Source of the DNA: a virus
DNA length: 64,000 bases
Virus record (IMG/VR): IMGVR_UViG_3300045988_159911
Reading direction: 5' to 3' (one strand)
The position numbers were made by a program, and so were the translations under genes. Under the pieces are notes generated by a model. The model saw only the letters and a list, made by a program, of their open reading frames with translations, was not told where the DNA came from and searched no databases. Positions 20,043 to 61,410 of the stretch are shown here, piece after piece; position 1 is the stretch's first letter, and each line of letters starts with the position of its first letter.

Positions 20043-20075
20043 GAAAAAGAAGAGGTCGCGAAACCTCTTCTTAAA
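20043..20075. terminator. Bidirectional rho-independent terminator
   Basis: 8-bp stem GAAGAGGT/ACCTCTTC with loop CGCGAA, flanked by an A-run and T-rich sequence. Confidence 0.5.
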
Positions 20076-20094: not shown

Positions 20095-20508
20095 CTACTT
20101 TTGAAAGATGAGCGTTACCCCCAACGGGATGTCGTACAGAATCCTTTCGCCGTCATAATCCAAAAGCTTCTTTTCATCGTTTTCTGACACAAGTTCAATA
20201 AAAGTGTCTTCGACGATATATGTGCCGGTTACTTCAAATGCTTTTCCGTTTTCACTACGAACCATGTGGACTGATCCGTCTTTTGTAAACCTTAGAGTGG
20301 TTTCGCTCCATTCAAGTAGAGAGTAACCACATTGCTCACAGAGATCCATAACATCTGATGCGTCATACACTGTGCCATCATACTCATATTCGCTTACTTT
20401 CCAAGTGCCTGACACAGACGAATCTGTCTTCGTGCAAGAAGCACATAGTACCAAACAGATGAAGGTTAGGAACACTACAATTATTTTGTTACGCAACATT
20501 GTAGTCAC
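20095..20508 (-). CDS. Lipoprotein
   Basis: Signal peptide plus lipobox (LVLCASC) at the N-terminus; 137 aa. Confidence 0.5.
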   Translation of the reverse strand: MTTMLRNKIIVVFLTFICLVLCASCTKTDSSVSGTWKVSEYEYDGTVYDASDVMDLCEQCGYSLLEWSETTLRFTKDGSVHMVRSENGKAFEVTGTYIVEDTFIELVSENDEKKLLDYDGERILYDIPLGVTLIFQK

Positions 20509-21462
20509 CTACCTTGTAAACGCCGCTTTCCAACACTCGTAGTCGTCTTCAAGATCACGACGAATACCGTTGGCAAGCTTATTCCTGGTGTAGTTACGGT
20601 GGTACTGGTGGTCTGTTTTACCCATACGCTCAACAATGAATGCGTCGAAATTCACTGGCTCTCCAAACCTTTCCATCTCATAGGTCTTATAGAAGAGGCC
20701 AGACAGACGGATTTTACCATACGATGTTTCAATACCTTCGGCCTTAAACTTCTTACCAATGACTGCCCTTATGGTAGTGAGCTTGATCTGAGCGGAACGA
20801 ATTCCTCTCAAAAGATGCTCGCCCGGATACCTGTTACGATACCCACCCTGCTTACCATCAGTATAGTTTGGGTTAACATAGCGAAACTCTGTAGCGTTGC
20901 AGGCCATCTTAAAGGCAGGAACTGCTTCACGATAGATCTCATAAGACTTTCCGCCATGTTCAATCGTCATGGTGTCAAAGTCTACTTCATCGACTGTTAC
21001 CTCAATCGCTTCTGCTTCTTCAATGCCTGCAAAACCCATCCAGAGATAACATCTGTATAGACAGTCTACTGTTTCGCTTGCTACCGGTTCAAAGATCTTA
21101 TTGAGTATGGCTTCGAGATGGATTGGAGAAGCTATCATCATGCGTTTCATCTTCTCGTCCATCTCAGTTTTCAGCTCATACACATCGCTACAGGTAGGAT
21201 AACCTTGTTCTTTGCACCAGCCGACATACGATCTCAAAAAGGCTATGGTTGAGTCCGTCGTTCTTGTACGGGAGCCAAACTTCGCATTAGCAATAGGCTG
21301 TAGGATGTCCACAGTAAGTTCGCAGAGATCCTTTTCCTCTTTCTGCTCATAGGGCTCTATGGTGTTGAACACAGACTTGCCAAAGTCTACTGAACTTCTC
21401 ATTTCGGTCAAAAACCGCATCTTTCGCTCTTCGTTATACATGGGAACCTCCTTACGCAGCAC
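20509..21462 (-). CDS. Hypothetical protein; weak, divergent resemblance to a tyrosine recombinase
   Basis: 317 aa with faint integrase-like blocks (SAM-like N-terminal domain, HLLRGIR, HQYHRNY), but the catalytic Arg is absent. The call is not secure. Confidence 0.25.
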   Translation of the reverse strand: MLRKEVPMYNEERKMRFLTEMRSSVDFGKSVFNTIEPYEQKEEKDLCELTVDILQPIANAKFGSRTRTTDSTIAFLRSYVGWCKEQGYPTCSDVYELKTEMDEKMKRMMIASPIHLEAILNKIFEPVASETVDCLYRCYLWMGFAGIEEAEAIEVTVDEVDFDTMTIEHGGKSYEIYREAVPAFKMACNATEFRYVNPNYTDGKQGGYRNRYPGEHLLRGIRSAQIKLTTIRAVIGKKFKAEGIETSYGKIRLSGLFYKTYEMERFGEPVNFDAFIVERMGKTDHQYHRNYTRNKLANGIRRDLEDDYECWKAAFTR

Positions 21463-21886
21463 AACAGTTCAGCCGGACGGCTGCCTGCCATACCTCCAGC
21501 AGATCGCTCTCGTTCAGAAACGAGATAGCTGCTGTGGCAAGCAGGTTCGCTGCTGCGATTTTCTTCATATACTCGTCGGGAAGTCTTGTCAGAAACTTTC
21601 CGATCCTCGCCTTAGACATTTTTTCGGGGTTCTCACACAAAACCATGCTGTCTCTCCGCAGACCGGTGTCTGCAGCGAGCACGACCACATGGGTCGGCTG
21701 GTTTGTTTTCTTGATAGAGCTGGTGAGTGGAAGTGCAATCACATTAGGGCTGTGTGCATTACCGACATTATTCTGAAACACCACGCCAGGTCTCCATCCG
21801 CTTTGCTCGTTCCCGCTACCCTCAAACTTCATCAGGTAGACATCTCCGATCACCGGAGCCATACTACTCTGCCGATTCTCGCTCAT
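21452..21886 (-). CDS. mazF: MazF/EndoA (PemK) family endoribonuclease toxin
   Basis: VIGDVYLMKFEGSGNEQSGWRPGVVFQNNVGNAHSPNVIALPLTSSIKKTNQPTHVVV...GLRRDSMVLCENPEKMSKARIGKFLTRLPDEYMKKI aligns closely with B. subtilis EndoA ([59 protein letters not shown]...). RBS GGAGGA lies 8 nt before the ATG at 21886. Confidence 0.8.
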   Translation of the reverse strand: MSENRQSSMAPVIGDVYLMKFEGSGNEQSGWRPGVVFQNNVGNAHSPNVIALPLTSSIKKTNQPTHVVVLAADTGLRRDSMVLCENPEKMSKARIGKFLTRLPDEYMKKIAAANLLATAAISFLNESDLLEVWQAAVRLNCCAA

Positions 21887-21934
21887 TCTTCAGTTCCTCC
21901 TATGTCGAGTCCTCTTTCCTCCTGTTGTGACCCA

Positions 21935-21963
21935 ATTATAGCACGAACTGACGCGTATGTCAA
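21935..21963 (-). promoter_or_regulatory. Consensus sigma-70 promoter driving the mazF-like gene
   Basis: Minus strand reads TTGACA, a 17-nt spacer, then TATAAT. The -10 element is about 49 nt upstream of the mazF ATG. Confidence 0.6.
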
Positions 21964-21981: not shown

Positions 21982-22311
21982 TTAGTAGCATTTCAAAGAA
22001 AATTTTACGGGGACAGGCGCATTTGCCAGAGAATGGTCGTTGCACAAGAGGATAAAACCCTTTTCTTTGGCGTTAGAGCCATGTTTTTTGATGGTTTCCA
22101 CATGGCTAAGGCATAGTTTCGCATCACTATTTTTCAAGGCGATATAAGGTGATGCAGACAGACTTATGGCAATGTGGTCAAAGTGGATAGAGAAGCTTAA
22201 CGGCGTAAGCGGATCTTCGTATGTAAGGAGAAAATGGTTGTACGGCTCTGTTTCGGTTCTAAACCGCCCCAGAGAAATGGTAGAATTCATGCAGCATACC
22301 TCCAGAAGCAC
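21982..22311 (-). CDS. Hypothetical protein, divergent from the repressor gene (cro-position gene without an evident HTH)
   Basis: 109-aa ORF transcribed away from the repressor. Confidence 0.3.
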   Translation of the reverse strand: MLLEVCCMNSTISLGRFRTETEPYNHFLLTYEDPLTPLSFSIHFDHIAISLSASPYIALKNSDAKLCLSHVETIKKHGSNAKEKGFILLCNDHSLANAPVPVKFSLKCY

Positions 22312-22485
22312 TTGATTTTTCGCGGCTATCGTGATACACTACAAGCGTTAAGCTGCATATGTGGTAGTGTGCAACTTAGCTTGCAGTTCCTTGCGAGCTG
22401 CAATACCAGGTTTTGATACAACGACCTGGACTTTCCTTGAGGGCGGGCATTTCGGTGCTCGTCCTCTTCTTATATGTACTACAGC

Positions 22486-22560
22486 TCTTGACACAAACAG
22501 TCTTTTGTGATAACATAGCCATATCAAACAACTGTTTGTGTTCCCTATATTAGCACAAGC
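22486..22560 (+). promoter_or_regulatory. Repressor promoter with two palindromic operator-like sites
   Basis: TTGACA, 17-nt spacer, TAACAT. Two palindromes, CAAACAGTCTTTTGTG and CAAACAACTGTTTGTG, overlap and follow the -10 element. Confidence 0.5.
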
Positions 22561-22607
22561 AGGAAATCATGTCAAGACCTTGATAGTCTCAAAATTAGGA
22601 GGCAGTT

Positions 22608-23402
22608 ATGAATTTTAGTGAAAACTTAAAGAGCATCCGAAGCGATGCCGGAATGACACAGAAATCCCTTGGCGAGAAGATCGGCGTTACTTCGGTCACT
22701 ATCGGGAACTGGGAGCGTGGCGTCCGGCAGCCTTCGTTTGAGCTGCTTCCCAAACTCGCAGACGCTCTTGATACAAGCGTTGATGCGTTGCTTGGAAAAC
22801 ATAGAACCGCCAGGAGGAACCTTGCGGAAGAGGAACTATTAGCAAACTACAGACAACTTGACGCACACGGTCAAAAACTTGTTCGTATCATATGCAACAC
22901 AGAACTTGAACGGTTAAAGCCGCGCAAACCAGAGGTTATTCGGTTCCAAGAGAAGAAACAGGAGAGAAAGGTCGCCAGAAAACACAATCGATACATCCCG
23001 TTTTACCTTACACCACCCGCAGCGGGCATTGCTGTTCCGCTTGAGGGCGATGAATTTGAGATGCTTCTGGCTGACGACTCTGTGCCGACAGATGCAGACT
23101 ATGCCGTTTGCATTTCTGGCGACAGTATGGAACCTTATATCCATGACGGAGAAATGGTGTTTGTTAAAGAGACGCAGGAATTATACGATGGTGATGTCGG
23201 TATTTTCTGTGTAGATGGCGCAATGTATTGCAAACAATACTATGTTGACGAAGAAAGAAACCTACACTTGCTGTCTGCAAACCCAAACAGGATAAACGCA
23301 AACATCTATGTAGATGGCGAAAGCGGGTCTTCTGTTAAATGCTGTGGCAAGGTTTTGCTTGGTAAGACAATACCGTTGCCTGATTATTTTGAAGAAGATT
23401 AA
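22608..23402 (+). CDS. CI/LexA-like repressor (N-terminal XRE HTH plus C-terminal S24 peptidase)
   Basis: N-terminal HTH (LKSIRSDAGMTQKSLGEKIGVTSVTIGNWERG); C-terminal AVCISGDSMEPYIHDGEMVFVK...CKQYY with the S24 Ser/Lys dyad. RBS AGGAGG. Confidence 0.85.
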   Translation: MNFSENLKSIRSDAGMTQKSLGEKIGVTSVTIGNWERGVRQPSFELLPKLADALDTSVDALLGKHRTARRNLAEEELLANYRQLDAHGQKLVRIICNTELERLKPRKPEVIRFQEKKQERKVARKHNRYIPFYLTPPAAGIAVPLEGDEFEMLLADDSVPTDADYAVCISGDSMEPYIHDGEMVFVKETQELYDGDVGIFCVDGAMYCKQYYVDEERNLHLLSANPNRINANIYVDGESGSSVKCCGKVLLGKTIPLPDYFEED

Positions 23403-25845: not shown

Positions 25846-26988
25846 TTATCTCCTTTGCAGCTTCTTCACTGAATCTGCGATGACATGAGCTGCCTCGCAA
25901 ATCTCCTCGTTCGTTGTAAACACAGAAAATGAAACACGGATTGAACTTCTCGCCTCATCGTCTGACAAACCAATCGCAGTCAACACATGGCTTGGAACTG
26001 CAGAATGGGCAGAACAGGCAGAGCCGGCAGATACAAAAATTCCTTTATTGTTGAGTAGAAGGAGCAAAGTTTCCCCATCCACTCCATCAAAGAAAAGATT
26101 GACTGTTTTTGAACCATCATGGGGGCAACCGTTAATCTGAACCTCACCCAGTTCTTTGGTGAGTTCACTCAAGAAAAGCTTACGCTTGTCTGCATTCTTC
26201 TGTTTGCTTGTAGGATCTTCGAATGCGGCCTCGGCAGCTTCTCCCATGCCGACAATAGACGGAACATTTTCCGTTCCAGACCGAAGCGTCTGCTCCTGAC
26301 CTCCGCCAAGAATGATTGGTTGAAGAAGTTCTTTGTGTTTTGCGTATAAAAAACCCACGCCCTTTGGAGCGTGGAACTTATGACCGGAGACTGAAAGAAA
26401 ATCGATATGATCCCTTTCCACATCAATATCCATATTGCCATATGCCTGGACACAATCTGTATGGAAGAAGATGCCATACTTCTTACACTTTGCTCCGATC
26501 CTCTGGATGTCATAGGAATTTCCCGTTTCATTGTTGACTGCCATCACGGACACAAGACCGGTATTTTTCCTAATCTTCCTGGTGAGTTCGGCGGTATCCA
26601 ATTCACCGTCTTTACCCATAGCCAAATACTCGACTTCAAAACCACTATAAAACAGGTATTTCATAGCCTCCAAAACGGAGGGATGCTCTACCGGAGTAGT
26701 AAGCACATGAGTTTTTCCAATGGATTCGAGGTGTTTTGCCAAACCCACGATTGCCAGTGTGTTTGCTTCTGATCCACCAGAAGTGAAGATAATATCTTCT
26801 GGGTCAGCATTGATTGGCCTTGCACACTGTTCCCTTGCTTTCTGCATTGCTTTTGCCGCATCTGCTCCCATCGTGTGAATGCTTCCTGCGTTACCATACA
26901 TTTCTGTGAAATACGGGAGCATAGCATTTACCACTCGCTGAGAGACCTGTGTGGTTGCGGCATTATCCAAATAGATCGTGGGAACCAC
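25846..26988 (-). CDS. Cysteine desulfurase (NifS/IscS-like, class V aminotransferase)
   Basis: SGHKFHAPKGVGFLY PLP-lysine motif; N-terminal LDNAATTQ; C-terminal SAGSACS catalytic-cysteine loop. Confidence 0.8.
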   Translation of the reverse strand: MVPTIYLDNAATTQVSQRVVNAMLPYFTEMYGNAGSIHTMGADAAKAMQKAREQCARPINADPEDIIFTSGGSEANTLAIVGLAKHLESIGKTHVLTTPVEHPSVLEAMKYLFYSGFEVEYLAMGKDGELDTAELTRKIRKNTGLVSVMAVNNETGNSYDIQRIGAKCKKYGIFFHTDCVQAYGNMDIDVERDHIDFLSVSGHKFHAPKGVGFLYAKHKELLQPIILGGGQEQTLRSGTENVPSIVGMGEAAEAAFEDPTSKQKNADKRKLFLSELTKELGEVQINGCPHDGSKTVNLFFDGVDGETLLLLLNNKGIFVSAGSACSAHSAVPSHVLTAIGLSDDEARSSIRVSFSVFTTNEEICEAAHVIADSVKKLQRR

Positions 26989-30947: not shown

Positions 30948-31808
30948 TCACAGCCACCGCTCAACATAGTCGCGGTCTTGTGTGAAAATCGGAGGCTCAT
31001 TGTCGATAATCCATTTGCGTCTGGAAACCGTGATGGTCTTACCAGGATTATTCTGGTCAGGCATATTGATTTCCTCAGCTTGCCTATAGCAGCAAGAACC
31101 TCTCTTGCAATCCACGGGGAAATCGTTCCAGTTGATACCATGTACCTGCCACAGCATCTCCTGAATCATGTTTGTGGTCTTCTTATGAAGCTGATTGGCG
31201 CTGAAATACGCTTGTCCAACAGCCTCGATACTGTTTCTGGTGGCATCCTGCTGTCGCCAAATCAAGCAGTTGCAAACTTCATCCTTGGGGACTGAGAATG
31301 CACGAGAATCAAAAAGAGCGCCCTTATTCAGCGCCCTCTTCAAGGTTTCTGCGTATTTGTTCAGCTCCTTTTTGATCTCAGGATCTTCGCTATACATACC
31401 ACTCAGTACATCTTCCCGATTGAAATAATCGTCGATGTTCTGATAGAGCGCTTTGTTAAAAGCCAGGGTTGCCAGCGATGCTGAGATGCTGCACATCTTC
31501 TGGAGGTTATATCCAAACCACGCATCGGTTGTGATGGTCGCGTAGTCCGTCAAAACCAAAGTGATTTCGTCAGACTGTGTGTAGCCAAATACACAACCCT
31601 GAATATTGGCGCAGAGACTTTGCATGGTCTGTTGCATGGTTTTCATCAAGATAGAATCAAAAGGCTTTTTCATGCCCTTTGTAAAGGTGTGAAACGCCTT
31701 GCCGTCAATGCGGATCACAACTGGGACTCTGCGTGTCAGATAGCTACGAGAGATATTTTCATAGCTCTCTTTCATACGGTCACCCAAAGAGTCCTTCTTA
31801 TTGCTCAT
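30948..31808 (-). CDS. Thg1-like tRNA-His guanylyltransferase family protein
   Basis: MKESYENISRSYLTRRVPVVIRIDGKAFHTFTKGMKKPFD...FGYTQSDEITLVL matches the Thg1 N-terminal signature (RxDGxxFHxF...KPxD...SDEIS). Confidence 0.65.
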   Translation of the reverse strand: MSNKKDSLGDRMKESYENISRSYLTRRVPVVIRIDGKAFHTFTKGMKKPFDSILMKTMQQTMQSLCANIQGCVFGYTQSDEITLVLTDYATITTDAWFGYNLQKMCSISASLATLAFNKALYQNIDDYFNREDVLSGMYSEDPEIKKELNKYAETLKRALNKGALFDSRAFSVPKDEVCNCLIWRQQDATRNSIEAVGQAYFSANQLHKKTTNMIQEMLWQVHGINWNDFPVDCKRGSCCYRQAEEINMPDQNNPGKTITVSRRKWIIDNEPPIFTQDRDYVERWL

Positions 31809-33150
31809 CGCTGCACCATCCTTTCATAATCAAATGTTTAATGATTGCGGGGCGCTCGTTTTCAAGGTTACCACTGATGACAGCATCAAGAACCTCATTT
31901 AGAATTCGCCCAACATCTTTACCCTCTTTTACATCGCAGAGGTTCATAATGTCATACCCGTCAATGACCAGATCCTTCAGCTTAAAGCATTGGTTCTGCT
32001 CAATGATTTCGCTTGCCATCATGCCAAGAGCGATACATCTGTCAATGCGAGACTCTTGCGTATCTTTTCTGTGAGCCAGAATATCTGCCATGCGAATATC
32101 AAGAAGTCGCATAAACTGCTTTTCACCGACTTTATTGAGCCATCTACGAACCGTTTTGGGAGTAGGCTCAATAACTGCATCGTGATATAGCACCAGTTCA
32201 AGAATGTCATCTCGCGATTTGTTATCAAAGCGAAGTCTTGTCAGGACTTTTTCTGCAAGGTCATGGCTGAAAACCCCATGACCGTAGAAGTGCCCACCAT
32301 TGTGATCTTCTGTATAACAGCATGGTTTACCAATGTCGTGAAGCAGAAGTGATACATTTACCACCGGATCTGTGGCGTCGTAGTTTGCAACCGCATGAGC
32401 AATATGGTCGTAAATCGTAAACTCATGGAATCGATTGTTCTGGTCAAATCCAATACAAGGCTTAAGTTCAGGAATAATCGTTGCCATCACATCGCTATAT
32501 TCAAGCAGGATATTGAGAATACCCTTGCCGGCCAGCATCTTGCATAGTTCTGACTGGATGCGCTCTGCAGCAATGTTCATCAACCTATCTTTGTTTTGGT
32601 GAATGGATCTTGCTGTTTCTTCGGCAATAGAAAAACCGTATACAGATGCAAATCGCATTGCTCTAAGGATACGCAGAGCGTCCTCTCCAAACCTGTCGTC
32701 TGGATTTCCAACACAGGAAATAACACCACGCTCCAAATCTTCGTTTCCACCAAAAGGATCGATCAGACCGTTATGGTTGTATGCCATTGCGTTAATGGTG
32801 AAGTCTCTGCGAGCCAGATCTTCCGCCACATTTGTTACGAACCTTACCGAATCGGGGTGGCGGTTATCTGAATATTCGCCATCCACTCGAAATGTAGTGA
32901 CCTCATACTGCCCATCGTCCATTACGATGGTTACAGTACCGTGCTTCAATCCTGTCTCGATAACACGCTTGTCACAAAAACTGTATAGAATTTGTGACGG
33001 GGAGGCAGATGTACACACATCCCAATCCTTAGGCTCGACGCCAAGCAGACTGTCTCTTACACAGCCACCGACCACATATGCGTCATATCCTGCCTGCTGT
33101 AGGGTATGGGTAATAATTTGGGCACCCTGAGGAATATGGATATCACTCAT
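31798..33150 (-). CDS. cca: CCA-adding tRNA nucleotidyltransferase with a C-terminal HD domain
   Basis: GGCVRDSLLGVEPKDWDVCTSASP head motif; RxxRF motif; HD motif (LLHDIGKP). Confidence 0.8.
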   Translation of the reverse strand: MSDIHIPQGAQIITHTLQQAGYDAYVVGGCVRDSLLGVEPKDWDVCTSASPSQILYSFCDKRVIETGLKHGTVTIVMDDGQYEVTTFRVDGEYSDNRHPDSVRFVTNVAEDLARRDFTINAMAYNHNGLIDPFGGNEDLERGVISCVGNPDDRFGEDALRILRAMRFASVYGFSIAEETARSIHQNKDRLMNIAAERIQSELCKMLAGKGILNILLEYSDVMATIIPELKPCIGFDQNNRFHEFTIYDHIAHAVANYDATDPVVNVSLLLHDIGKPCCYTEDHNGGHFYGHGVFSHDLAEKVLTRLRFDNKSRDDILELVLYHDAVIEPTPKTVRRWLNKVGEKQFMRLLDIRMADILAHRKDTQESRIDRCIALGMMASEIIEQNQCFKLKDLVIDGYDIMNLCDVKEGKDVGRILNEVLDAVISGNLENERPAIIKHLIMKGWCSDEQ

Positions 33151-43916: not shown

Positions 43917-44032
43917 TATATATCTCTTAGTGTTCTGTAAGAGATTATGATGCAGAAGAACACACGAAGTGATCTCCGCACGATCCTTTAGGATCGAAGC
44001 AGATCACGAGTGTGAAAAGTAACAAAACCTTA

Positions 44033-44052
44033 CTTCGATTTACAATACGAAG
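44033..44052. repeat. Hairpin CTTCG-ATTTACAATA-CGAAG, copy 1 of the conserved-loop hairpin family
   Basis: Perfect 5-bp stem with the conserved 10-nt loop. Confidence 0.5.
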
Positions 44053-44263
44053 CGACTGCCTCTATGTATTGACTGTGTATGGCAGACCATGTGCATTATA
44101 AATTCTTTTCGGTTGTTTATCGTTCGCAACCTGAATAAAGTGCTTTTGGATCTATCAAGAGCTTTTTGAGACGCCTCGTCGCGAAAAGCTCTTTATCGAT
44201 TCAAAACATCTTTATTTGCAGCGGGGCATGGGGTTTACCCCAGATAAGCTTCTCAACCCTTTA

Positions 44264-44283
44264 CTTCGATTTACAATACGAAG
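44264..44283. repeat. Hairpin CTTCG-ATTTACAATA-CGAAG, copy 2
   Basis: Identical hairpin about 230 nt from copy 1 in the same intergenic region. Confidence 0.5.
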
Positions 44284-44334
44284 CCACCCTATGTATTAAA
44301 GAAATGGGTAAATGTCCGTTGCAAACGCAAAATA

Positions 44335-44969: not shown

Positions 44970-45056
44970 TGGTACGGATAGTGGGACTTGAACCCACACA
45001 TCATTGCTGACATTAGCACCTGAAGCTAACGCGTCTGCCAATTCCGCCATATCCGC
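44970..45056 (-). tRNA. tRNA-Leu(CAG), type II
   Basis: Reverse complement is GCGGATATGGCGGAATTGGCAGACGCGTTAGCTTCAGGTGCT...GGGTTCAAGTCCCACTATCCGTACCA, close to E. coli tRNA-Leu(CAG); CCA is encoded. Confidence 0.75.
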
Positions 45057-45229
45057 ATATTTCTTTGGTCGGCTTCCCGCTTAGATTGTCACATCGTCTA
45101 CTTGAGAGTAAAGGTCTCGTTCGCAAACAACCGTGTATACCCGATTGCTCCGCAGTTTTCAGCGGACATTTTCATTCTCTGTGTGGTAAGCCGATAATCG
45201 CACACATCATCTGGGAGCTACCCAGCCAC

Positions 45230-45320
45230 TGGCGGAGCAGATAGGACTTGAACCTACACACCCTTTCGGGCTACTCACGGTTTAGCAAACCGCTGCCTTA
45301 CCAATTAGGCTTACTGCTCC
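45230..45320 (-). tRNA. tRNA-Ser(GCT), type II
   Basis: Anticodon loop TTGCTAA, long variable arm, T-loop GGTTCAAGTCC, CCA encoded. Confidence 0.75.
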
Positions 45321-45324
45321 ATAA

Positions 45325-45400
45325 TGGAGCTGGTGGACGGATTCGAACCCCCGACCTACTGATTACAAATCAGTTGCTCTACCGACTGAGCTACACCAGC
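45325..45400 (-). tRNA. tRNA-Thr(TGT)
   Basis: GCTGGTGTAGCTCAGTCGGTAGAGCAACTGATTTGTAATCAGT...GGTTCGAATCC...CCA. Confidence 0.8.
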
Positions 45401-46015
45401 ATCTCTTTGTAGGGTTTTTCGCGCTTCTGCAGATTTCCACGCCTTGTCCTTACCGTTTATCCCTATTGCCACATGGGATCACAGACCCTAAACACTTCTG
45501 CTCTATGCCGGTTGTGTTCTGATACCGGAAAACATTCTGGGGACTTTATTTTGCCTTGTTGCTCCAGCCCTCAAGGGTAACTCGGCAAGTGGCTTGCCTA
45601 TTTGGATCTTGGTGCCATCATCTCAGCCATACACTCCGGCCTAAACCTAAGTTTGCCAGAACCTCTCCAAATGCTCCTATGTATGCCGTCCTCGCCTCTG
45701 ACTGAAATGATGTGCCGACACCTTCCATACCGTCTCACTTGCAAAATAAAACAAACTACGAACGGGGTGTGGTAAGCACATACCACCCAAACCTCTGCTT
45801 AGTCCCGCCGGTTCTGGTTTACGACATGGTTTGGTGCTCATGCCCTTGAGCTATTAGGCTATTTAACTATCTCTCACCGGCTTGATTTGCTTTTGTTGAG
45901 GCGGTGCCAGAGCACGCTGCTCATATCCCGTTATCTTCCGCCCATCGTAGTCGATGACCCAGCCACTATATATCATTTCAAGTGGGCTTTTCCCATACCG
46001 CCTAAAGCGTATGGC

Positions 46016-46125
46016 TGGTGGAGAGGGATGGATTCGAACCACCGAAGCTTAATTGACCACACGGCGCCCCAAGTCAAAAAGCGGAGATTTACAGTCCCCG
46101 ACTTTGGCCACTTGTCTACCTCTCC
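46016..46125 (-). tRNA. tRNA-Tyr(GTA)-like gene with an abnormally long (about 39-nt) variable region
   Basis: Canonical acceptor stem (GGAGAGG/CCTCTCC), anticodon arm GGGGA-CTGTAAA-TCTCC and T-arm GGTGGTTCGAATCCATC plus CCA are all present. A 39-nt variable insert makes the whole 110 nt. Confidence 0.4.
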
Positions 46126-46283
46126 ATGTGTTTGCCAGCTCCTGCACCTTGTACTTCGGCATCGTCACTGGTAAAAGGATTACGGTGCAGGCACCGTCGT
46201 TCCCCAAAGGCTAACCCTTTTCCGCAGGATTTAATAAAGCATACGCAATGAGCTATTAACTCACTGACCGCGACTCACTTACT

Positions 46284-46359
46284 TGGTGGAGATGGTCGGG
46301 ATCGAACTGGCGACCTCCTGCTTGCAAGGCAGGCGCTCTCCCAACTGAGCTACATCCCC
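46284..46359 (-). tRNA. tRNA-Ala(TGC)
   Basis: GGGGATGTAGCTCAGTTGGGAGAGCGCCTGCCTTGCAAGCAGGAG...CCA; the G3:U70 Ala identity pair is present. Confidence 0.8.
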
Positions 46360-47016: not shown

Positions 47017-48510
47017 TTAGTGCTTGTCAGCAATCGCGCCGCCCAGCATACCGGACAGCACGGCCATCAGATCCAGGCCGGTTGCATCCTTGAAACCATC
47101 CTGAACCTGCTTCATGCCGGTGGTAACGGCGCCGGTCAGAGTGGAAGTACCACCCTCGTAGATGGTCATGTTGTCGATACCCTCCATAGGCTTAGCAACG
47201 GCAGCGGCAATCTCAGGCATGGTCTTGACATACTCCATTGCCACATCCAGAACCATCTGCTGCTTAGCAGCGTCGCCGTATTCCTTCATAGCTTCTGCCT
47301 TCTTCAGAATGCCTGCAGCCTCAGCCTCTGCCTTAGCCTGAATGGCCTCGGCTTCAGCACGACCCTTGGCAGCGATACCGGCAGCTTCGTTTTCCATTGC
47401 CACACGAGCAGCTTCGGAACGAGCCTTTTCAGCAGCAGCTCTCTGCTCTGCCTCAAACAGCTCTGCAGCAGCCTGCTTCTGACGCTCGAACAGCTCAGCC
47501 TCAGAAGACTTCTGAACCTCATACAGCTTTGCATCAGCTTCCTGCTGTGCAGCGTACTTATCGGCCTCAGCCTTCTTCTTGATCTCTGCATCCAAAGAAC
47601 GCTCACGGATAGCAACCTCGCGCTCCTTCAGTTCGATTTCCTTTTCCAGACGAGCCAGGTTGGCTTCGGCTGTCTTGGTTTCGATGGATGCACGCTGCTC
47701 CTGCTCCTGAATTGCATAGGCAGCATCTGCTTCTGCTCGCTTGGCGTCCTCAATCTTCTTCAGCTCAGCCATCTGAATGGCAAGCTCGTTCTGACGCTTA
47801 GCAATCTCCTGATCGGACTTAACCTGAGCCTCGTTGGCAGCCATAGCAGCCTGAGCCTGAGCAATAGCAATCTCCTTCTCTGCCTGAGCCTTGGAAATTG
47901 CGGCGTCCTTGGAAATCTGAACAGTGTTCTCCAGACCGAGGTTGTCGATCACGCCGTTGCGATCCTTGAAGTTCTGAATGTTAAAGGTAGTCAGCTCCAG
48001 ACCCATATCGTTCAGGTTGGGAGTAACATTCTCAATGATACGCTCGGCAAAAATCTTCTTGTCACCCTGGATCAGTTCCTTCAGAGTGGTCTGAGAAATG
48101 ATCTCACGAATATTACCCTCCAGAACAGGAGTAATGATTTCGCGAATCTGATTGGGATTATAGCCAAGGAATTTAGAGGCTGCGACCTTCAGCATATCAG
48201 GATCTTTAGCGATGGACACATTGGCTACTGCGTCAACCATAATGTTGATAGCATCCTTGGTGGGGATCTCATCGCGAGAAGTGAAGTCAGACTGAATGTT
48301 TTCCAGAGACATATAGTCGACACGCTGGATGATAGGAATAACCAGTGCGCCCTGACCGATAATTGTTCTTGCACCACGGGGGCCGGTGATGACCATTGCC
48401 ACATTGGGAGGTGCTTTCTTATACATAACCTTGCCAATGAAGATCAGAAGAATGATTGCGACAAGGATGCCGACACCGGCGGTTGCGTAAGGCAAAATCA
48501 TTTCGAGCAT
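47017..48510 (-). CDS. Flotillin/SPFH (band 7) family protein, FloT/YuaG-like
   Basis: N-terminal transmembrane anchor, SPFH domain (VMVITGPRGARTIIGQGALVIPIIQRVDYMSLENIQ) and a long EA-rich coiled coil (AEAEAIQAKAEAEAAGILKKAEA). Confidence 0.65.
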   Translation of the reverse strand: MLEMILPYATAGVGILVAIILLIFIGKVMYKKAPPNVAMVITGPRGARTIIGQGALVIPIIQRVDYMSLENIQSDFTSRDEIPTKDAINIMVDAVANVSIAKDPDMLKVAASKFLGYNPNQIREIITPVLEGNIREIISQTTLKELIQGDKKIFAERIIENVTPNLNDMGLELTTFNIQNFKDRNGVIDNLGLENTVQISKDAAISKAQAEKEIAIAQAQAAMAANEAQVKSDQEIAKRQNELAIQMAELKKIEDAKRAEADAAYAIQEQEQRASIETKTAEANLARLEKEIELKEREVAIRERSLDAEIKKKAEADKYAAQQEADAKLYEVQKSSEAELFERQKQAAAELFEAEQRAAAEKARSEAARVAMENEAAGIAAKGRAEAEAIQAKAEAEAAGILKKAEAMKEYGDAAKQQMVLDVAMEYVKTMPEIAAAVAKPMEGIDNMTIYEGGTSTLTGAVTTGMKQVQDGFKDATGLDLMAVLSGMLGGAIADKH

Positions 48511-49677: not shown

Positions 49678-50010
49678 TCATCTGTAATCTACAAGTACAC
49701 CCGTCTTCTTGAGGAAGCTCTGGAGGGACTCCTCGTCGAGAGCTGAGGCTTCGTGAACCGTGAGTTCGGGATTTCGCATCGGGTCGGTGAGCGAGAAAAC
49801 CCTTGTAGTTACAGGGGTTTTCGAGTGTTTCCGAGTGAGGAAATTTATTTATTTCCTGACCCTGCGAGCAGTGTCATCTCTTGCGCCGGGCGGATTCGCT
49901 GGAGGCGCCTGCCGCAGCGGCGTGCCCCTGGTATTTCCCCCCGGCCATTCGTAACTCCGATTTACAATACGGAGCATTAACTGAAACAGTTAATAATGCA
50001 TTACAGATGA
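49678..50010 (-). repeat. Inverted-repeat-bounded structured intergenic element, copy 1 (about 333 nt)
   Basis: Perfect 11-bp terminal inverted repeats: tcatctgtaat at 49678-49688 and attacagatga at 50000-50010. Contains the GGTATTTCC...CCATTCGTAAC-hairpin-...ATGCATTACA module. Confidence 0.55.
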
Positions 50011-50606: not shown

Positions 50607-50949
50607 TTTCTTTGTAATCATTACATATATATCCTGATTCCCTTCAGTGCGATCATCGCTGGGATGCCAATCCCAGTTCTGTCGTCATCTGATGTGATTT
50701 GGACTTCTTGCAGTTGGGAAACCACCTAATTCCGAGGTCTTAATTGGTGTTTTGCACGGAATTATTTATTTAGTCTTGGTTCAACCGCCGGAGACTGGGT
50801 GCCTCTTGAGGTGTTAACGCGTTGACGGCCGGCGGAGCTGCGGGCGTCACCAGTGGTGGGCTATGTATTTCCTCCCGACCATTCGTTACTTTGATTGACA
50901 ATACAAAGTGCTACTTGCCAAAGACAAACAGCTATGCATTACAAAGAAA
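50607..50949 (-). repeat. Inverted-repeat-bounded structured intergenic element, copy 2 (about 343 nt)
   Basis: Perfect 12-bp inverted repeats: tttctttgtaat at 50607-50618 and attacaaagaaa at 50938-50949. Both arms carry the same substitution (CTTTG instead of ATCTG), so they have covaried. Confidence 0.55.
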
Positions 50950-51864: not shown

Positions 51865-53010
51865 CTACTGGTTGAGATCCTCGCTCATGCTTTTCATAAC
51901 ATCGGTGTGGAACTTCTCATTGTTGTACTTGATTACGCTATCTACATACTCTTTTTCGACCATGCTGTAATAGTTGACCAAACCACGCAGAACCTGTACA
52001 TCGTGCAGATCCCAATGGCGACCATTCTGCCGGTCGAGAATGTAGTTGCAAATCATTGCCCGCAAGCGCTGTTTGTTCTTATAACCAATGGTGATCTCAT
52101 TATCCTTATTGAGCATCACACCGAGGTTCCAATTACTTCCAGCGCGTGAGCCATAGCGCGTCTTTTCGTCTTTGATCTTAAAAGGAGCACCAAACTCTGC
52201 GAGGGTAGAATTGATAAAGCCGATGATTTCATCCTTATCAAAACCCTTACGGCTTGAAAAGAGAGAGTCATCGGCATATCTGGTATATACATAATGATTT
52301 CCATTGAAGTCGCGCAGGCAATTGTTGATACGATGGTCAATGGGAATCATCATCAGATTCGTGAGCATAGGGGAAATAGGTGTTCCCTGCGGGAGACCAC
52401 CGTTCAGGAAACACAGATCCAACGCTTTTTCCAAAGCATCAAATCCGCGCTGAGATTTTACGATCTCGCTAAATGGAAATACTTTGGAAAGCATAGACAT
52501 CAGGAACTTCGGAGTTGTGCTGCCAAAGAAGTCAGAGAAGTCGGTCTTGAGGAACCAATGACTCTCATTCTTCTGATGACGCTTTACCGCGTCGATGGTA
52601 GATCTTCCGGGAACATAAGCAAATGCGCTGGTATGATACAGCGCAAACATCTGGGTTTCAAAAATCGTTTTCAGATTTCTGAGCGCATTCATCAGCGCTG
52701 GCTGCGGCGCATTGATCTCACGCAAGCCACCGGACTTCTTAGGGATATAGAACTTATCGTAGAGGTCGCTGCGCTTTGCCTCGTAAAGTTTAGCGTTCTG
52801 CTTGCAAAACTCTTCCAAGGTTACGACCATTGCATCAATATCAAAACGCTCAAGGAACTTGGGGTTCAGAACTTTGGAAAAGTAAGTTCTTGTGTTGGTC
52901 TCATTGGGGTTGACCATGTTGGCGAGATTGACATTCCCCGAAATAATTTCATCAAATGTGATCTGATGGAAAATCGGAGACTGCATCAGCGTAATGTAAG
53001 GCACTTCCAA
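51865..53010 (-). CDS. Reverse transcriptase, retron/DRT-like (not DGR-type)
   Basis: RT motifs IPKKSGGLREINAP, LKTDFSDFFGS, GLPQGTPISPMLTNL (QGxxxSP) and YTRYADDSLFS (YADD). The ORF begins at a TTG; a GTG at codon 3 sits 7 nt after RBS GGAGG. Confidence 0.8.
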   Translation of the reverse strand: MEVPYITLMQSPIFHQITFDEIISGNVNLANMVNPNETNTRTYFSKVLNPKFLERFDIDAMVVTLEEFCKQNAKLYEAKRSDLYDKFYIPKKSGGLREINAPQPALMNALRNLKTIFETQMFALYHTSAFAYVPGRSTIDAVKRHQKNESHWFLKTDFSDFFGSTTPKFLMSMLSKVFPFSEIVKSQRGFDALEKALDLCFLNGGLPQGTPISPMLTNLMMIPIDHRINNCLRDFNGNHYVYTRYADDSLFSSRKGFDKDEIIGFINSTLAEFGAPFKIKDEKTRYGSRAGSNWNLGVMLNKDNEITIGYKNKQRLRAMICNYILDRQNGRHWDLHDVQVLRGLVNYYSMVEKEYVDSVIKYNNEKFHTDVMKSMSEDLNQ

Positions 53011-53031: not shown

Positions 53032-53358
53032 ATCTGTAATCTACATACTCTGTGATGAGATGACCAGATCAGCTCAGGATACTCGTAGATCTTCAGATTC
53101 CTGGATTCGGACATCTGATGGCTATGAAGTAACGGTGAACTCCTGGTTGTGCAGGTAATGAGTCTTGGATTTCCTGTGGTTCCTTAAAGTTTTCTTCAGG
53201 AGACACTGATGAAACTCTTGACTTTTGCTGTATAACCTGCGATGCTGCGACCGAGTCGCTGCAGCGTTTCTGGGTAGCCGGGTATTTCCCGTCCACCATT
53301 CGTAACTTTGATTTACAATACAAAGCACTTCCTATTCGGGAAGTAATGCATTACAGAT
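53032..53358 (-). repeat. Inverted-repeat-bounded structured intergenic element, copy 3 (about 327 nt), directly upstream of the reverse transcriptase; candidate msr/msd-like ncRNA locus
   Basis: 9-bp inverted repeats: atctgtaat at 53032-53040 and attacagat at 53350-53358. Shares the conserved module and hairpin with copies 1 and 2. Confidence 0.5.
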
Positions 53359-60214: not shown

Positions 60215-60303
60215 TGGCGGAGAGGGTGGGATTCGAACCCACGGAGGTTTTACCCTCGCCGGTTTTCAAGACCGGTTCCTTAAACCAGCTCGAACACCTC
60301 TCC
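60215..60303 (-). tRNA. tRNA-Ser(TGA), type II
   Basis: ...GGAACCGGTCTTGAAAACCGGCGAGGG...GGGTTCGAATCCCACCCTCTCCGCCA, similar to E. coli tRNA-Ser(TGA). Confidence 0.75.
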
Positions 60304-60307
60304 TTAT

Positions 60308-60535
60308 TCAATAGATGGCGACCGTTTTGGTGAACAGAAGATACAGACCCAGGGGAGCAGTCAGCAGAACTGCGGTTGCATCTTTATCTTCAACCGTGGT
60401 TCCCTGAGAAGCTATGTAAATGAGCAGGATGCTCATGGCGATCAGCGCCAAACCATAAAGCTTCTGGATAAACAGCTTCTTGCGACGGATCTGATTGCGG
60501 GTTCTCTTACTAACAGCTTGCGTGCTCATTTTCAA
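60308..60535 (-). CDS. Small two-helix membrane protein
   Basis: 75 aa with LALIAMSILLIYIA and LLTAPLGLYLLF helices. Confidence 0.3.
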   Translation of the reverse strand: MKMSTQAVSKRTRNQIRRKKLFIQKLYGLALIAMSILLIYIASQGTTVEDKDATAVLLTAPLGLYLLFTKTVAIY

Positions 60536-61026
60536 ACCTCCTCAGAATACGGATACTGAATAACTTTGTCCCCATCAACGATGGGGTGACGAATGGAAAA
60601 CCCATATGCGTCGTAGAGATATTCCTCAAACGCAGATGCGATTTCCTCAATGCAGTCATCATCGAAGCACTCGTCCGGTTCGCACTCCAACAGAACGGAG
60701 AGGTAATCAATGGTTGCGCTGTGGATTTCTCCAAGTCGGTCAAGGTCTTCTGCATCCAAAACCTCATCGCTATCGGTTTCGCAGATGTAGAGATTGAGAA
60801 GCTGCGAGTAAACCTTTTCGATTTCAGCTTCAGAACTTGCTTTGGCTTCGTATTCAACGACTCCGTCCACTTCAACCGTGAAGTAAGGCAAACCCTCTTC
60901 CTCGGTGATGTAAACCTCGGCGCTAACCTCTGCTTCATCAGCGACCAAGCGATATTCGCTCTGCAGGGCAAACCGATTTTCGTTGTAGAACTTTCGGATC
61001 TCGCCAACAGATACAATCGCTGCCAT
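60532..61026 (-). CDS. Hypothetical acidic protein
   Basis: Internal ATG 61026 with RBS AAAAGGAGGTG gives MAAIVSVGEI... Confidence 0.4.
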   Translation of the reverse strand: MAAIVSVGEIRKFYNENRFALQSEYRLVADEAEVSAEVYITEEEGLPYFTVEVDGVVEYEAKASSEAEIEKVYSQLLNLYICETDSDEVLDAEDLDRLGEIHSATIDYLSVLLECEPDECFDDDCIEEIASAFEEYLYDAYGFSIRHPIVDGDKVIQYPYSEEV

Positions 61027-61065
61027 CTGAACACCTCCTTTTCCTGTTAAATTCAAAACTTTCCA

Positions 61066-61111
61066 CTCTGCATTTCTCATGCGGGCTTGTGACCGCCATT
61101 GGCTGCATTAG
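61066..61111 (-). repeat. Conserved-flank, covarying-hairpin motif, copy B
   Basis: CTCTGCATTTCTCATGCGGGCTTGTGACCG, hairpin GCCAttGGC, then TGCATTAG. Confidence 0.45.
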
Positions 61112-61337
61112 AAAACCCCTCTTGAGAACAGGTAAGCAGCCGATTCACAAGAGGGGAATTTCCCCCGCGTTCAGGTGTTAATGCGGGATTGTTTAATCAA
61201 TCATAAACTTTAATCATTTGGATAACACCTGCCCAAAGCAAGAGGTCAGCGCTAACCCCTCACTCTCCGCATTTCGGGAATCTTTTCGCATACGGTACGC
61301 CGCGTCAAGGCTCGTCGCGGAAAACCCTGCCAGGGAT

Positions 61338-61410
61338 GTGACATGAGCAAGGCTCGAACTTGCGACACGCCGGTCATATCCGGCTGCTCTACCGACTGAG
61401 CTATCATGCC
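61338..61410 (-). tRNA. tRNA-like gene, putative anticodon TAT (Ile-AUA?), with a non-canonical G32-A33 anticodon loop
   Basis: GGCATGATAGCTCAGTCGGTAGAGCA-GCCGG-GATATGA-CCGGC-GTGTC-GCAAGTTCGAGCCTTGC-TCATGTCA. The acceptor, D, anticodon and T stems are all perfect, but the loop lacks U33 and no CCA is encoded. Confidence 0.4.

Follow-up and report, generated by a model that had tools for sequence, protein, structure and literature searches.

A phage mazF gene without a canonical antitoxin heads a conserved operon with an MrpR/SroF-like repressor gene, possibly within an SPβ-like lysis–lysogeny switch

What does a phage do with a gene for a MazF-type toxin when no gene for a MazE-type antitoxin stands beside it? 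The question is raised by a stretch of viral DNA of 64,000 nucleotides (IMG/VR record IMGVR_UViG_3300045988_159911; called the window here), in which a mazF-like gene encoding 144 residues occupies positions 21452–21886 (stop codon included). The initial annotation described a stand-alone toxin gene beside a repressor switch. That interpretation is supported in part, and its orientation had to be corrected, as mazF lies on the minus strand. We find that mazF opens a strictly conserved operon of two genes, and that the second of these encodes a 310-residue member of the MrpR/YopR/SroF family of integrase-fold repressors. The architecture of this mazF–repressor switch is near-certain. Our reading of it, to which we give a probability of about 0.5, is that the operon is expressed in the lysogen inside an SPβ-like lysis–lysogeny switch, in which MazF would be the phage's own equivalent of the host MazF on which phi3T draws.

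The gene product is a MazF/PemK family member by profile, fold and catalytic residues, and RNase activity is predicted. It matches the Pfam PemK_toxin family (PF02452) over residues 14–113 with an E value of 2.8e-22 (79.4 bits, cut-off 23.1), and PHROG 1936, the 'MazF-like growth inhibitor', at 1.4e-24. The top sequence match in the Protein Data Bank (PDB) is the EndoA/MazF toxin of Bacillus subtilis (4mdx, E 5.7e-18), which is 40% identical (alignment A1). The AlphaFold2 (AF2) model, with a predicted local distance difference test (pLDDT) score of 76, adopts the SH3-like barrel of the MazF/CcdB fold, and Foldseek aligns it to 4mdx_A with a target-normalised template modelling (TM) score of 0.82 at 39% identity. 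The identification of the 144-residue open reading frame (ORF) as an EndoA/MazF homologue is thus borne out. The arginine and threonine that are catalytic in MazF toxins correspond to R32 (R25 in B. subtilis, R29 in Escherichia coli) and T55 (T48 and T52, respectively). An alignment check for these residues had been proposed in the initial annotation; both are present, and both are invariant in alignments of 27 and 61 sequences. The pair E27–Q28 is likewise invariant across the 61 aligned members. Invariance of the catalytic Arg, Thr and E-Q motif in 61/61 argues for retained RNase chemistry, and purifying selection is strong over the entire MazF core.

This MazF belongs to a distinct subfamily. 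The alignment with B. subtilis MazF stops at F123, and 21 residues (124–144) lie beyond it, in addition to approximately eight extra residues at the N-terminus. The 21 residues, containing LNESDLLEVWQAAVRLN (codons 124–144; 21455–21517, minus strand), form a C-terminal helix in the AF2 model (residues 126–140, block pLDDT 94/86). Seven positions are conserved in this tail, L129, L130, W133, S/A136, V/I137, L139 and N140, with W133 found in 60/61 sequences and N140 in 61/61. The protein database holds 1816 homologues, and since the best 120 of these are all about 141–147 residues long, the tail is a trait of the subfamily. An exhaustive profile search gave 50 representatives (clusters at 50% identity) at E ≤ 1e-30, and about 60 sequences align through the tail. 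The conserved C-terminal extension that had been proposed is therefore real, but its length is 21 residues, not about 30. W133 and N140 are spaced like the Y and N of the EndoAI helix. We asked whether the tail is an inhibitory helix of the MazE type that has become fused to the toxin; hhalign gave a probability of 0.08%, which lends no support to the idea.

Outside the subfamily, similar proteins are of a more general kind. The exact same MazF occurs in 397 blocks of a public collection. The closest phage matches in GenBank reach at most about 44% identity and have no tail, and a fold search of BFVD returned only generic PemK-like matches. PemK-like proteins with assorted extensions, often C-terminal, are frequent in phage proteomes. 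The best GenBank 'phage' match over the tail region, MT836918, was set aside, as it is an ordinary chromosomal mazF of 116 residues beside acpS.

The position of mazF in related genomes speaks most directly to the stand-alone description. We compared 80 viral loci from IMG/VR together with loci from genomes and metagenome-assembled genomes (MAGs); in about 110 viral and MAG loci the repressor gene begins within 0–45 nt of mazF. In each of the 79 viral loci that extend downstream, the gene for the 310-residue protein lies after mazF in the same orientation, and in 76 of these the gap between the two genes is −8 to +45 nt. Among the genome and MAG loci with downstream DNA the two genes are adjacent in 37 of 40, the exceptions being locus L106 and two distant homologues. 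L106 is the sole non-adjacent case within the tailed-MazF subfamily. The synteny persists although the identity of the 310-residue protein drops to 22–39%, with that of MazF remaining at 53–77%. This adjacency (76/79 viral loci, 37/40 genome and MAG loci) contradicts the view of mazF as a stand-alone toxin gene.

A few loci depart from the standard arrangement. In L112 (3451–5335) two tandem MrpR-like paralogues follow mazF. In L113 (9382–9702) the small upstream gene, called orfX here, has moved downstream onto the opposite strand. In L106 (8001–8414) the tailed mazF is kept and the MrpR-like gene is lost. A more distant MazF homologue was seen in Paenibacillus sp. (L124, 7950–8572); it is 35% identical and 150 residues long, with a different C-terminal extension. 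There, a 57-residue ORF overlaps the mazF stop codon, and neither an upstream mazE nor an MrpR-like gene is present. It may be another unconventional MazF arrangement; as an informative relative of the window it was set aside because of its different tail and the lack of an MrpR-like gene.

The second gene of the operon (20509–21441, minus strand) had been taken for an anonymous 317-residue protein that overlapped mazF by 11 nt. The overlap is an artefact of beginning the gene at a GTG. Translation likely starts at the ATG at 21441, which gives 310 residues and a gap of 10 nt, is preceded by an AAGGAGG Shine–Dalgarno (SD) sequence overlapping the mazF stop codon, and is the start on which public gene callers agree. 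Nor is the protein anonymous, as several lines place it in the MrpR/YopR/SroF family of phage master repressors. It matches Pfam MrpR_N_CB (PF22822; E 3.8e-11, 43.9 bits, cut-off 27), and this domain is found in 90/90 of its homologues. Its AF2 model has a pLDDT of 92.5, and a Foldseek search of the PDB fills places 1–7 with YopR (8bj6/8bpz), the phi3T SroF–DNA complex (9rd5, TM 0.58), MrpR (8a0a) and the SroF–Sar complex (9rgl), with XerA and integrases ranking below. The family profile orders the PDB in the same way: SroF at 2.4e-7, YopR and MrpR at 2.5e-5 to 2.4e-4, and XerA at 0.024. The N-terminal hallmark of the family, (M/L)(Y/F)N.E.K..(F/Y), is common to YopR and SroF.

MrpR has been described as a dead recombinase that serves as a repressor, and its residues have been tabulated (PMC10516654). 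The 310-residue family appears to have lost the same chemistry, as judged by sequence alignment only. The recombinase Arg-I is missing; its position reads G(I/L)EE and aligns to sGLAHSE in YopR. The box II region reads (I/R)RLSG. Y301 is conserved and parallels Y304 of MrpR. The protein is thus a member of the MrpR/YopR/SroF integrase-fold family with a predicted repressor function. It is not the phage integrase, and a separate recombinase is present.

Could this repressor-like protein itself be the antitoxin? In the canonical mazEF and pemIK modules an upstream, co-transcribed MazE or PemI is encoded, and no such gene stands at this locus. The absence of an adjacent MazE/EndoAI-like antitoxin gene, claimed in the initial annotation, holds, and our search with Pfam, PHROG and motifs found no antitoxin of MazE, AbrB, RHH or Phd type adjacent to mazF or among the 32 small proteins of the window. 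Neither a MazE/AimX helix motif nor a YosL-type antitoxin was found within the window. Rfam, searched for type III antitoxins and riboswitches, returned tRNAs only, and the defence systems in PADLOC gave no match for MazF, the MrpR-like protein, orfX or the 137-residue protein encoded third in the transcription unit. Two neighbours of mazF are conserved, orfX and the MrpR-like gene; both are candidates for an unconventional antitoxin, and for both the co-diversification with MazF is weak.

In a toxin-first type II toxin–antitoxin (TA) system, the MrpR-like protein would bind MazF, perhaps through the C-terminal helix, and would autoregulate the mazF promoter. Inactivation of the repressor or loss of the prophage would then free MazF, with prophage addiction, abortive infection or host shut-off at induction as the outcome. 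The layout has much in common with HigBA, MqsRA and HicAB, in which the toxin gene likewise precedes that of a DNA-binding partner in a tight bicistron with its own promoter. Close or overlapping genes (gap −8 to +45 nt) are typical of such pairs, the adjacency here is near-universal, the partner belongs to a DNA-binding family as type II antitoxins do, and it evolves faster than the toxin (mean identity 42% against 64%). The conserved extra helix of MazF could serve as a docking surface, and the small proteins of the window offered no other antitoxin. Unlike those systems, however, the two proteins show no signal of co-evolution. Their divergence is almost uncoupled (r 0.23, partial 0.09), despite the conservation of MazF and its tail. 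The N-terminal motif of the 310-residue family is shared with YopR and SroF and hence is not specific to MazF partners. To our knowledge, no MazF-family toxin is known whose antitoxin gene lies downstream, and no integrase-fold antitoxin of any kind is known either. In addition, MrpR/SroF of SPβ represses without a toxin partner (PMC10516654). We regard a toxin-first TA system as a doubtful explanation.

The obligate linkage to a repressor gene would also fit a MazF fold that has been domesticated and is no longer toxic, acting as a structural co-repressor or as an RNA- or DNA-binding partner of the MrpR-like protein in the manner of SroE. The new conserved C-terminal helix and the failure to find an antitoxin agree with this, and in SPβ-like phages a second repressor, itself poorly understood, is required, its gene lying directly upstream of sroF (bioRxiv 10.1101/2025.11.27.690993). 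Such a role would, however, leave little reason for the catalytic Arg, Thr and E-Q residues to be invariant in 61/61 sequences and for the whole MazF core to be under strong purifying selection. We therefore consider it very improbable.

A perfect sigma-70-type promoter, P_mazF, predicted to be strong and constitutive, lies at 21935–21963 on the minus strand, with TTGACA at 21963–21958, a spacer of 17 nt carrying an extended −10 TG, and TATAAT at 21940–21935 (12/12 matches). It is the sole perfect match in the window; three sites with at most one mismatch were found, where 0.42 are expected. Nearly all clades have TTGAC[A/T]-17-TATA[A/C]T at the equivalent site. A GGAGGA ribosome-binding site (RBS) stands 8 nt ahead of the mazF ATG, and 48 nt separate the −10 element from the ATG. 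The promoter and RBS reported earlier are therefore confirmed, as is the lack of a small ORF between promoter and ATG, which we re-inspected down to 25 residues. The sole ORF of at least that size in this gap is a mechanical one of 26 residues with a TTG start, and it precedes the start of transcription because its TTG is the TTG of the −35 hexamer. A search for an operator that P_mazF might share with other parts of the window gave no convincing repeated 12-mer.

We noted that the SD sequence of mazF is complementary to the spacer and −10 region of its own promoter. The anti-SD arm TCAGTTCGTGCTAT (21938–21951, minus strand; inverted repeat I3) lies in the promoter spacer/−10 region, upstream of the predicted +1, and its partner ATAGGAGGAACTGA, which includes the mazF RBS, lies at 21890–21903 on the same strand. 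Only transcripts that begin further upstream can thus mask the SD, which is free in RNA that starts at P_mazF. Calculations on the window sequence are in line with this. The SD/anti-SD duplex has a free energy of −15.8 kcal/mol, compared with −5.9 for shuffled sequences (z −5.2). In read-through RNA the SD is locked in a hairpin in both the minimum free energy (MFE) and the centroid structures (MFE −23.5), whereas in RNA from the predicted P_mazF +1 it is unpaired (MFE −5.3, z −0.16).

The same design is repeated in most clades with differing sequences, the anti-SD ACTCC typically lying within or just after the −10 element. Across 30 clade representatives the mean z for SD pairing is −1.55, 14/30 fall below −1.64, and the Wilcoxon test gives p 8e-6, although the representatives are related and this and the later p-values are not fully independent. 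There is no terminator between orfX and mazF in the window. The folding models suggest that MazF, and probably the translationally coupled repressor too, would be made from P_mazF transcripts and not from SOS-induced read-through RNA.

This gate bears on a further explanation, already raised in the initial annotation, in which MazF would be an antitoxin-less nuclease for lytic takeover, or a moron for abortive infection or exclusion, functionally unrelated to the repressor, the cell being doomed or the dose low. PHROG places the family in its class 'moron / MazF-like growth inhibitor', phage proteomes frequently contain PemK-like proteins with extensions, and mazF has a promoter of its own. 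Morons, however, are patchy in occurrence, while this mazF keeps its place between orfX and the repressor gene in over 100 loci and in approximately 50–60 representatives (50% identity). A repressor-family gene lies in the same operon and is probably coupled to mazF in translation. The mazF RBS is predicted to be masked in the SOS-inducible transcripts of the lytic phase, contrary to what a takeover enzyme would need, and PADLOC recognised no defence system. A takeover nuclease or free-standing moron thus seems quite unlikely.

An ORF of 102 residues, orfX, occupies 21982–22290 on the minus strand, with an ATG start and a GGAGG SD, and ends 18 nt before the −35 hexamer of P_mazF. It is not MazE-like, yet it is a conserved syntenic neighbour. 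The protein is an orphan at the position of Sar or cro, with no match in Pfam, PHROG, PADLOC or the PDB. The family is recognised by position: about 75 of 78 viral loci have an ORF of 100–135 residues on the same strand, ending just before P_mazF and 100–150 nt ahead of the IG(D/E)VY motif near the N-terminus of MazF. The window-clade orfX and those of other clades are also linked by hhalign (85%, E 6.5e-6). It is absent or unrecognisable in L061, L071, L074 and about eight MAG loci that keep mazF and mrpR. As to location, the earlier statement that mazF lies in the repressor region was right, but it is not merely beside the switch, since it stands between orfX, which is under predicted SOS control, and a repressor gene that co-diversifies with orfX.

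The control of orfX can be read from the region further upstream. The leftward promoter P_orfX (TTGACA-17-TAATAT, 22547–22575, minus strand) lies about 250 nt upstream of orfX, face to face with the rightward promoter P_CI (TTGACA-17-TAACAT, 22488–22516, plus strand). Both are spanned by a 17-nt inverted repeat, ACACAAACAGTCTTTTG / CAAACAACTGTTTGTGT (I1, 22491–22541, 88% complementary), a probable operator. P_CI reads towards the gene of a CI/LexA-like repressor of 264 residues (22608–23402, plus strand) with HTH_3 and Peptidase_S24 domains (Pfam, PHROG), and its translation contains the Ala-Gly site and the Ser-Lys motifs GDSM and GKV. As side observations, the predicted start sites of P_CI and P_orfX overlap by about 17 nt, the two promoters (22488–22575) being face to face and not back to back, and a terminator-like hairpin lies at 22439–22466 on the plus strand, inside the long orfX leader.

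A divergent CI-like repressor gene is found in about 55 of the 80 viral loci, and about a third of the relatives are without one. In the CI-less relatives, canonical Firmicute (Cheo-type) LexA boxes, cGAACnnnnGTTCg, coincide with the core or the +1 of strong promoters 170–270 nt upstream of orfX, the same distance as P_orfX. Such boxes occur in 9/17 CI-less clades and in 0/15 clades with CI (Fisher p 0.001), at a density of 0.89/kb against a background of 0.043/kb. The contrast is replicated in the MAG loci (6/13 and 0/14, p 0.006). SOS control of orfX thus appears to be supplied in two interchangeable ways, by a LexA-like repressor of the phage or by boxes for host LexA.

We then compared how the three proteins diverge across 28 clades, in which the mean identity is 64% for MazF, 42% for the MrpR-like protein and 27% for orfX. 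Divergence of orfX follows that of the MrpR-like protein (Spearman 0.61; partial 0.59 given MazF; Mantel p 5e-4), and MazF is coupled only weakly to either (r 0.23–0.26). We regard orfX as a candidate SOS-induced antirepressor and/or anti-MazF factor.

Taken as an anti-MazF factor alone, orfX would be an SOS-inducible antitoxin in the canonical gene order, acting on MazF at induction in the way that AimX and YosL neutralise the host MazF in phi3T, with the MrpR-like gene simply a neighbouring repressor gene. Its place directly upstream on the same strand, without a terminator before mazF and kept in most loci, suits this, and SOS control would answer the need for MazF to be inactive during lytic growth (PMC10769878). 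A slight association with MazF is also left (partial r 0.16, p 0.025). The strong promoter between orfX and mazF, however, means that toxin would be made without antitoxin. Moreover, in contrast to the conserved MazF and its tail, orfX varies extremely (mean identity 27%), and it tracks the repressor and not MazF. Features of MazE, AbrB or RHH proteins are lacking in orfX, as are an AimX-type M-x3-Y-x-E-M helix and a C-terminus that is acidic or disordered, and the loci L061, L071 and L074 and about eight from MAGs do without a recognisable orfX. We consider this role of orfX unlikely.

A third gene belongs to the transcription unit in the window. It lies at 20095–20508 on the minus strand and encodes a protein of 134–137 residues (134 as called in public contigs) with an N-terminal hydrophobic signal and a Cys. 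Its match to Lipocalin_4 is weak (E 0.0095). It is not conserved beyond the window clade and is possibly exported or a lipoprotein. A terminator-like hairpin with a T-run at 20047–20072 (minus strand) is the probable end of the unit that starts at P_mazF.

The Bacillus phages of the SPβ group offer the closest parallel to the proposed switch. In phi3T, the host MazF favours lysogeny, and the phage proteins AimX and YosL block it for lytic growth (PMC10769878; bioRxiv 10.1101/2023.04.27.537455). The SroF repressor, equivalent to MrpR and YopR, is inactivated by Sar (YopT), a small specific antirepressor that is encoded nearby and controlled by LexA, and the sro operon is spared by MazF (bioRxiv 10.1101/2025.11.27.690993). 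Here we find a repressor of the same integrase-fold family, lacking the recombinase catalytic residues by alignment, next to a small gene under predicted SOS/LexA control that co-varies with it (a correlation only, in our case), and a MazF nuclease that would again be linked to the lysis–lysogeny decision. The differences are also clear. The gene for MazF belongs to the phage and lies within its repressor operon, where SPβ-like phages rely on a host gene; no homologues of SroA–E, AimX or YosL were recognised near the mazF locus; orfX is unrelated to Sar; many members carry a LexA-like repressor of their own; and the hosts are gut Clostridia in place of Bacillus. As for arbitrium, no TPR gene of the size of AimR stood out among the annotated ORFs of the window, although no dedicated search was made.

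Other known systems share some of these features. The B. subtilis MazF/EndoA (ndoA) and MazE/EndoAI pair (4MDX/4ME7) has the same toxin fold, the GSEQ.G.RP motif and equivalents of Arg25 and Thr48 in the phage MazF. The phage gene, however, has no mazE ahead of it, is followed by a repressor gene and is phage-borne, and the protein differs in its 21-residue C-terminal helix, its approximately eight N-terminal residues and its β5–β6 segment, and in leaving UACAU unavoided in its own operon. The PHROG 1936 morons are matched at the family level by hidden Markov model; they too are PemK-like, phage-encoded and often extended at the C-terminus. The present subfamily differs from them by its fixed synteny with an MrpR-like gene, its specific conserved tail and the RBS gating.

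We propose that the switch would work as follows. In the lysogen, P_mazF would drive MazF and the MrpR-like repressor and, in the window clade, also the small exported-looking protein. On DNA damage, the SOS-controlled promoter would fire and orfX would be made. Given its position and control, which are analogous to those of Sar, orfX would likely antagonise its cognate MrpR-like repressor. Read-through from this promoter would occlude P_mazF and hide the mazF RBS, which would turn off new synthesis of MazF and, by coupling, of the repressor. MazF itself would be a sequence-selective RNase that disfavours lytic or incoming-phage transcripts and so stabilises lysogeny or immunity. We regard a pro-lysogeny RNase role for MazF as possible. 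The fuller version, in which MazF is an antitoxin-less effector that is translated in the lysogen, is shut off by SOS read-through and cuts lytic or incoming-phage transcripts to enforce lysogeny or immunity, is put forward tentatively. The lysogen might tolerate such a protein through a narrow cleavage specificity, a low dose set by autoregulation, or the C-terminal helix; alternatively, MazF may be bound by the MrpR-like protein, by orfX or by a host MazE.

Several points weigh against this proposal. RNase activity and repression, like promoter use and SOS induction, are predictions. A strongly expressed MazF without an inhibitor is normally toxic. Roughly one clade in three shows weak SD pairing or none, in L055 the pairing falls inside the P_mazF transcript, and the statistics come from related representatives. 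A recognisable LexA box is missing in 8/17 of the CI-less clades. orfX has no similarity to Sar or YopT and no PDB profile match to 9rgl or 2dlb, and the idea that it is an acidic DNA mimic like Sar was dropped, since the family is not acidic (median pI (isoelectric point) 7.6). The prediction from SPβ that the operon would avoid UACAU fails: 72 sites are present where 66.8 are expected (z +0.5 by synonymous shuffling). Avoidance of a 5-mer on one strand was detected neither in the operon nor in other phage genes; the scan for depleted 5-mers gave only generic signals, namely off-frame stops, internal GGAGG and palindromic sites of the restriction type. The β5–β6 segment, which reads LCENPEKMS throughout the family and LLEQIRTID in B. 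subtilis MazF, is also different, and the cleavage specificity is therefore probably different too.

The wider genome identifies the carrier as a temperate phage. On a 385-kb scaffold, a Tn916-Xis-like gene and a Phage_integrase of 422 residues lie at the end of the prophage, about 25 kb from the mazF–repressor operon, and the bacterial genes for an aminotransferase and for argG, argH and argD-like proteins follow the integrase. On a contig of 122 kb the same integrase abuts lysin genes at a circular-type junction. The Xis and integrase genes beside bacterial arg genes, together with the circular-type junction, indicate a temperate phage of approximately 120 kb. The prophage itself was seen beside an arginine-biosynthesis cluster (L131, 14571–21917, on the 385-kb scaffold). 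The phage genes include those for DNA Pol III alpha, primase, DnaB, NrdD, ThyX, methylases and tRNAs, and the MAG assignments point to hosts among the gut Clostridia (Oscillospiraceae, Ruminococcus and Acutalibacteraceae).

Further features were observed in the window. The tetramer ACGT is absent from positions 1–64000 (0 against 185 ± 12 expected), as is GGWCC (0 against 79 ± 10), and CCWGG, TTAA and CTAG-containing 5-mers are also depleted. This avoidance is palindromic and strand-symmetric and thus points to strong restriction-site avoidance. An intergenic repeat, ACT[TC][CT]GATT[TG]ACAATAC[GA][GA]AG, is dispersed at 44023–44056, 44254–44287, 49945–49978, 50879–50912 and 53296–53329. It has a 5-bp stem that covaries (CTTCG/CGAAG, CTCCG/CGGAG, CTTTG/CAAAG) around a constant loop and could be a phage promoter or operator, perhaps an SPBRE-like target of the MrpR-like repressor, or an RNA hairpin. 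Seven tRNA genes lie at 44973–46359 and 60218–61410, and genes for a CCA-adding tRNA nucleotidyltransferase and a Thg1-like tRNA-His guanylyltransferase at 31798–33150 and 30948–31808; this supply and repair set may be relevant for a phage with an RNase toxin. A reverse-transcriptase-like protein (51865–53010), possibly of a diversity-generating retroelement, an SPFH/flotillin-like protein (47017–48510) and a NifS-type class V aminotransferase (25846–26988) are also encoded.

MazF toxins and SroF/MrpR repressors are each known, and an operon that joins the two is undescribed in the literature we searched. The loci suggest that repressors of the integrase fold, paired with co-evolving genes under SOS control, occur widely beyond Bacillus. 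If the proposed switch is correct, the locus would provide a natural example of toxin maintenance without a canonical antitoxin, and an anti-SD sequence embedded in the promoter would make translation depend on the start site of the transcript. It would then represent an in-cis, phage-owned version of the dependence on host MazF that is seen in the arbitrium phages, and the link between MazF and lysogeny would extend from these Bacillus phages to abundant prophages of the human and animal gut.

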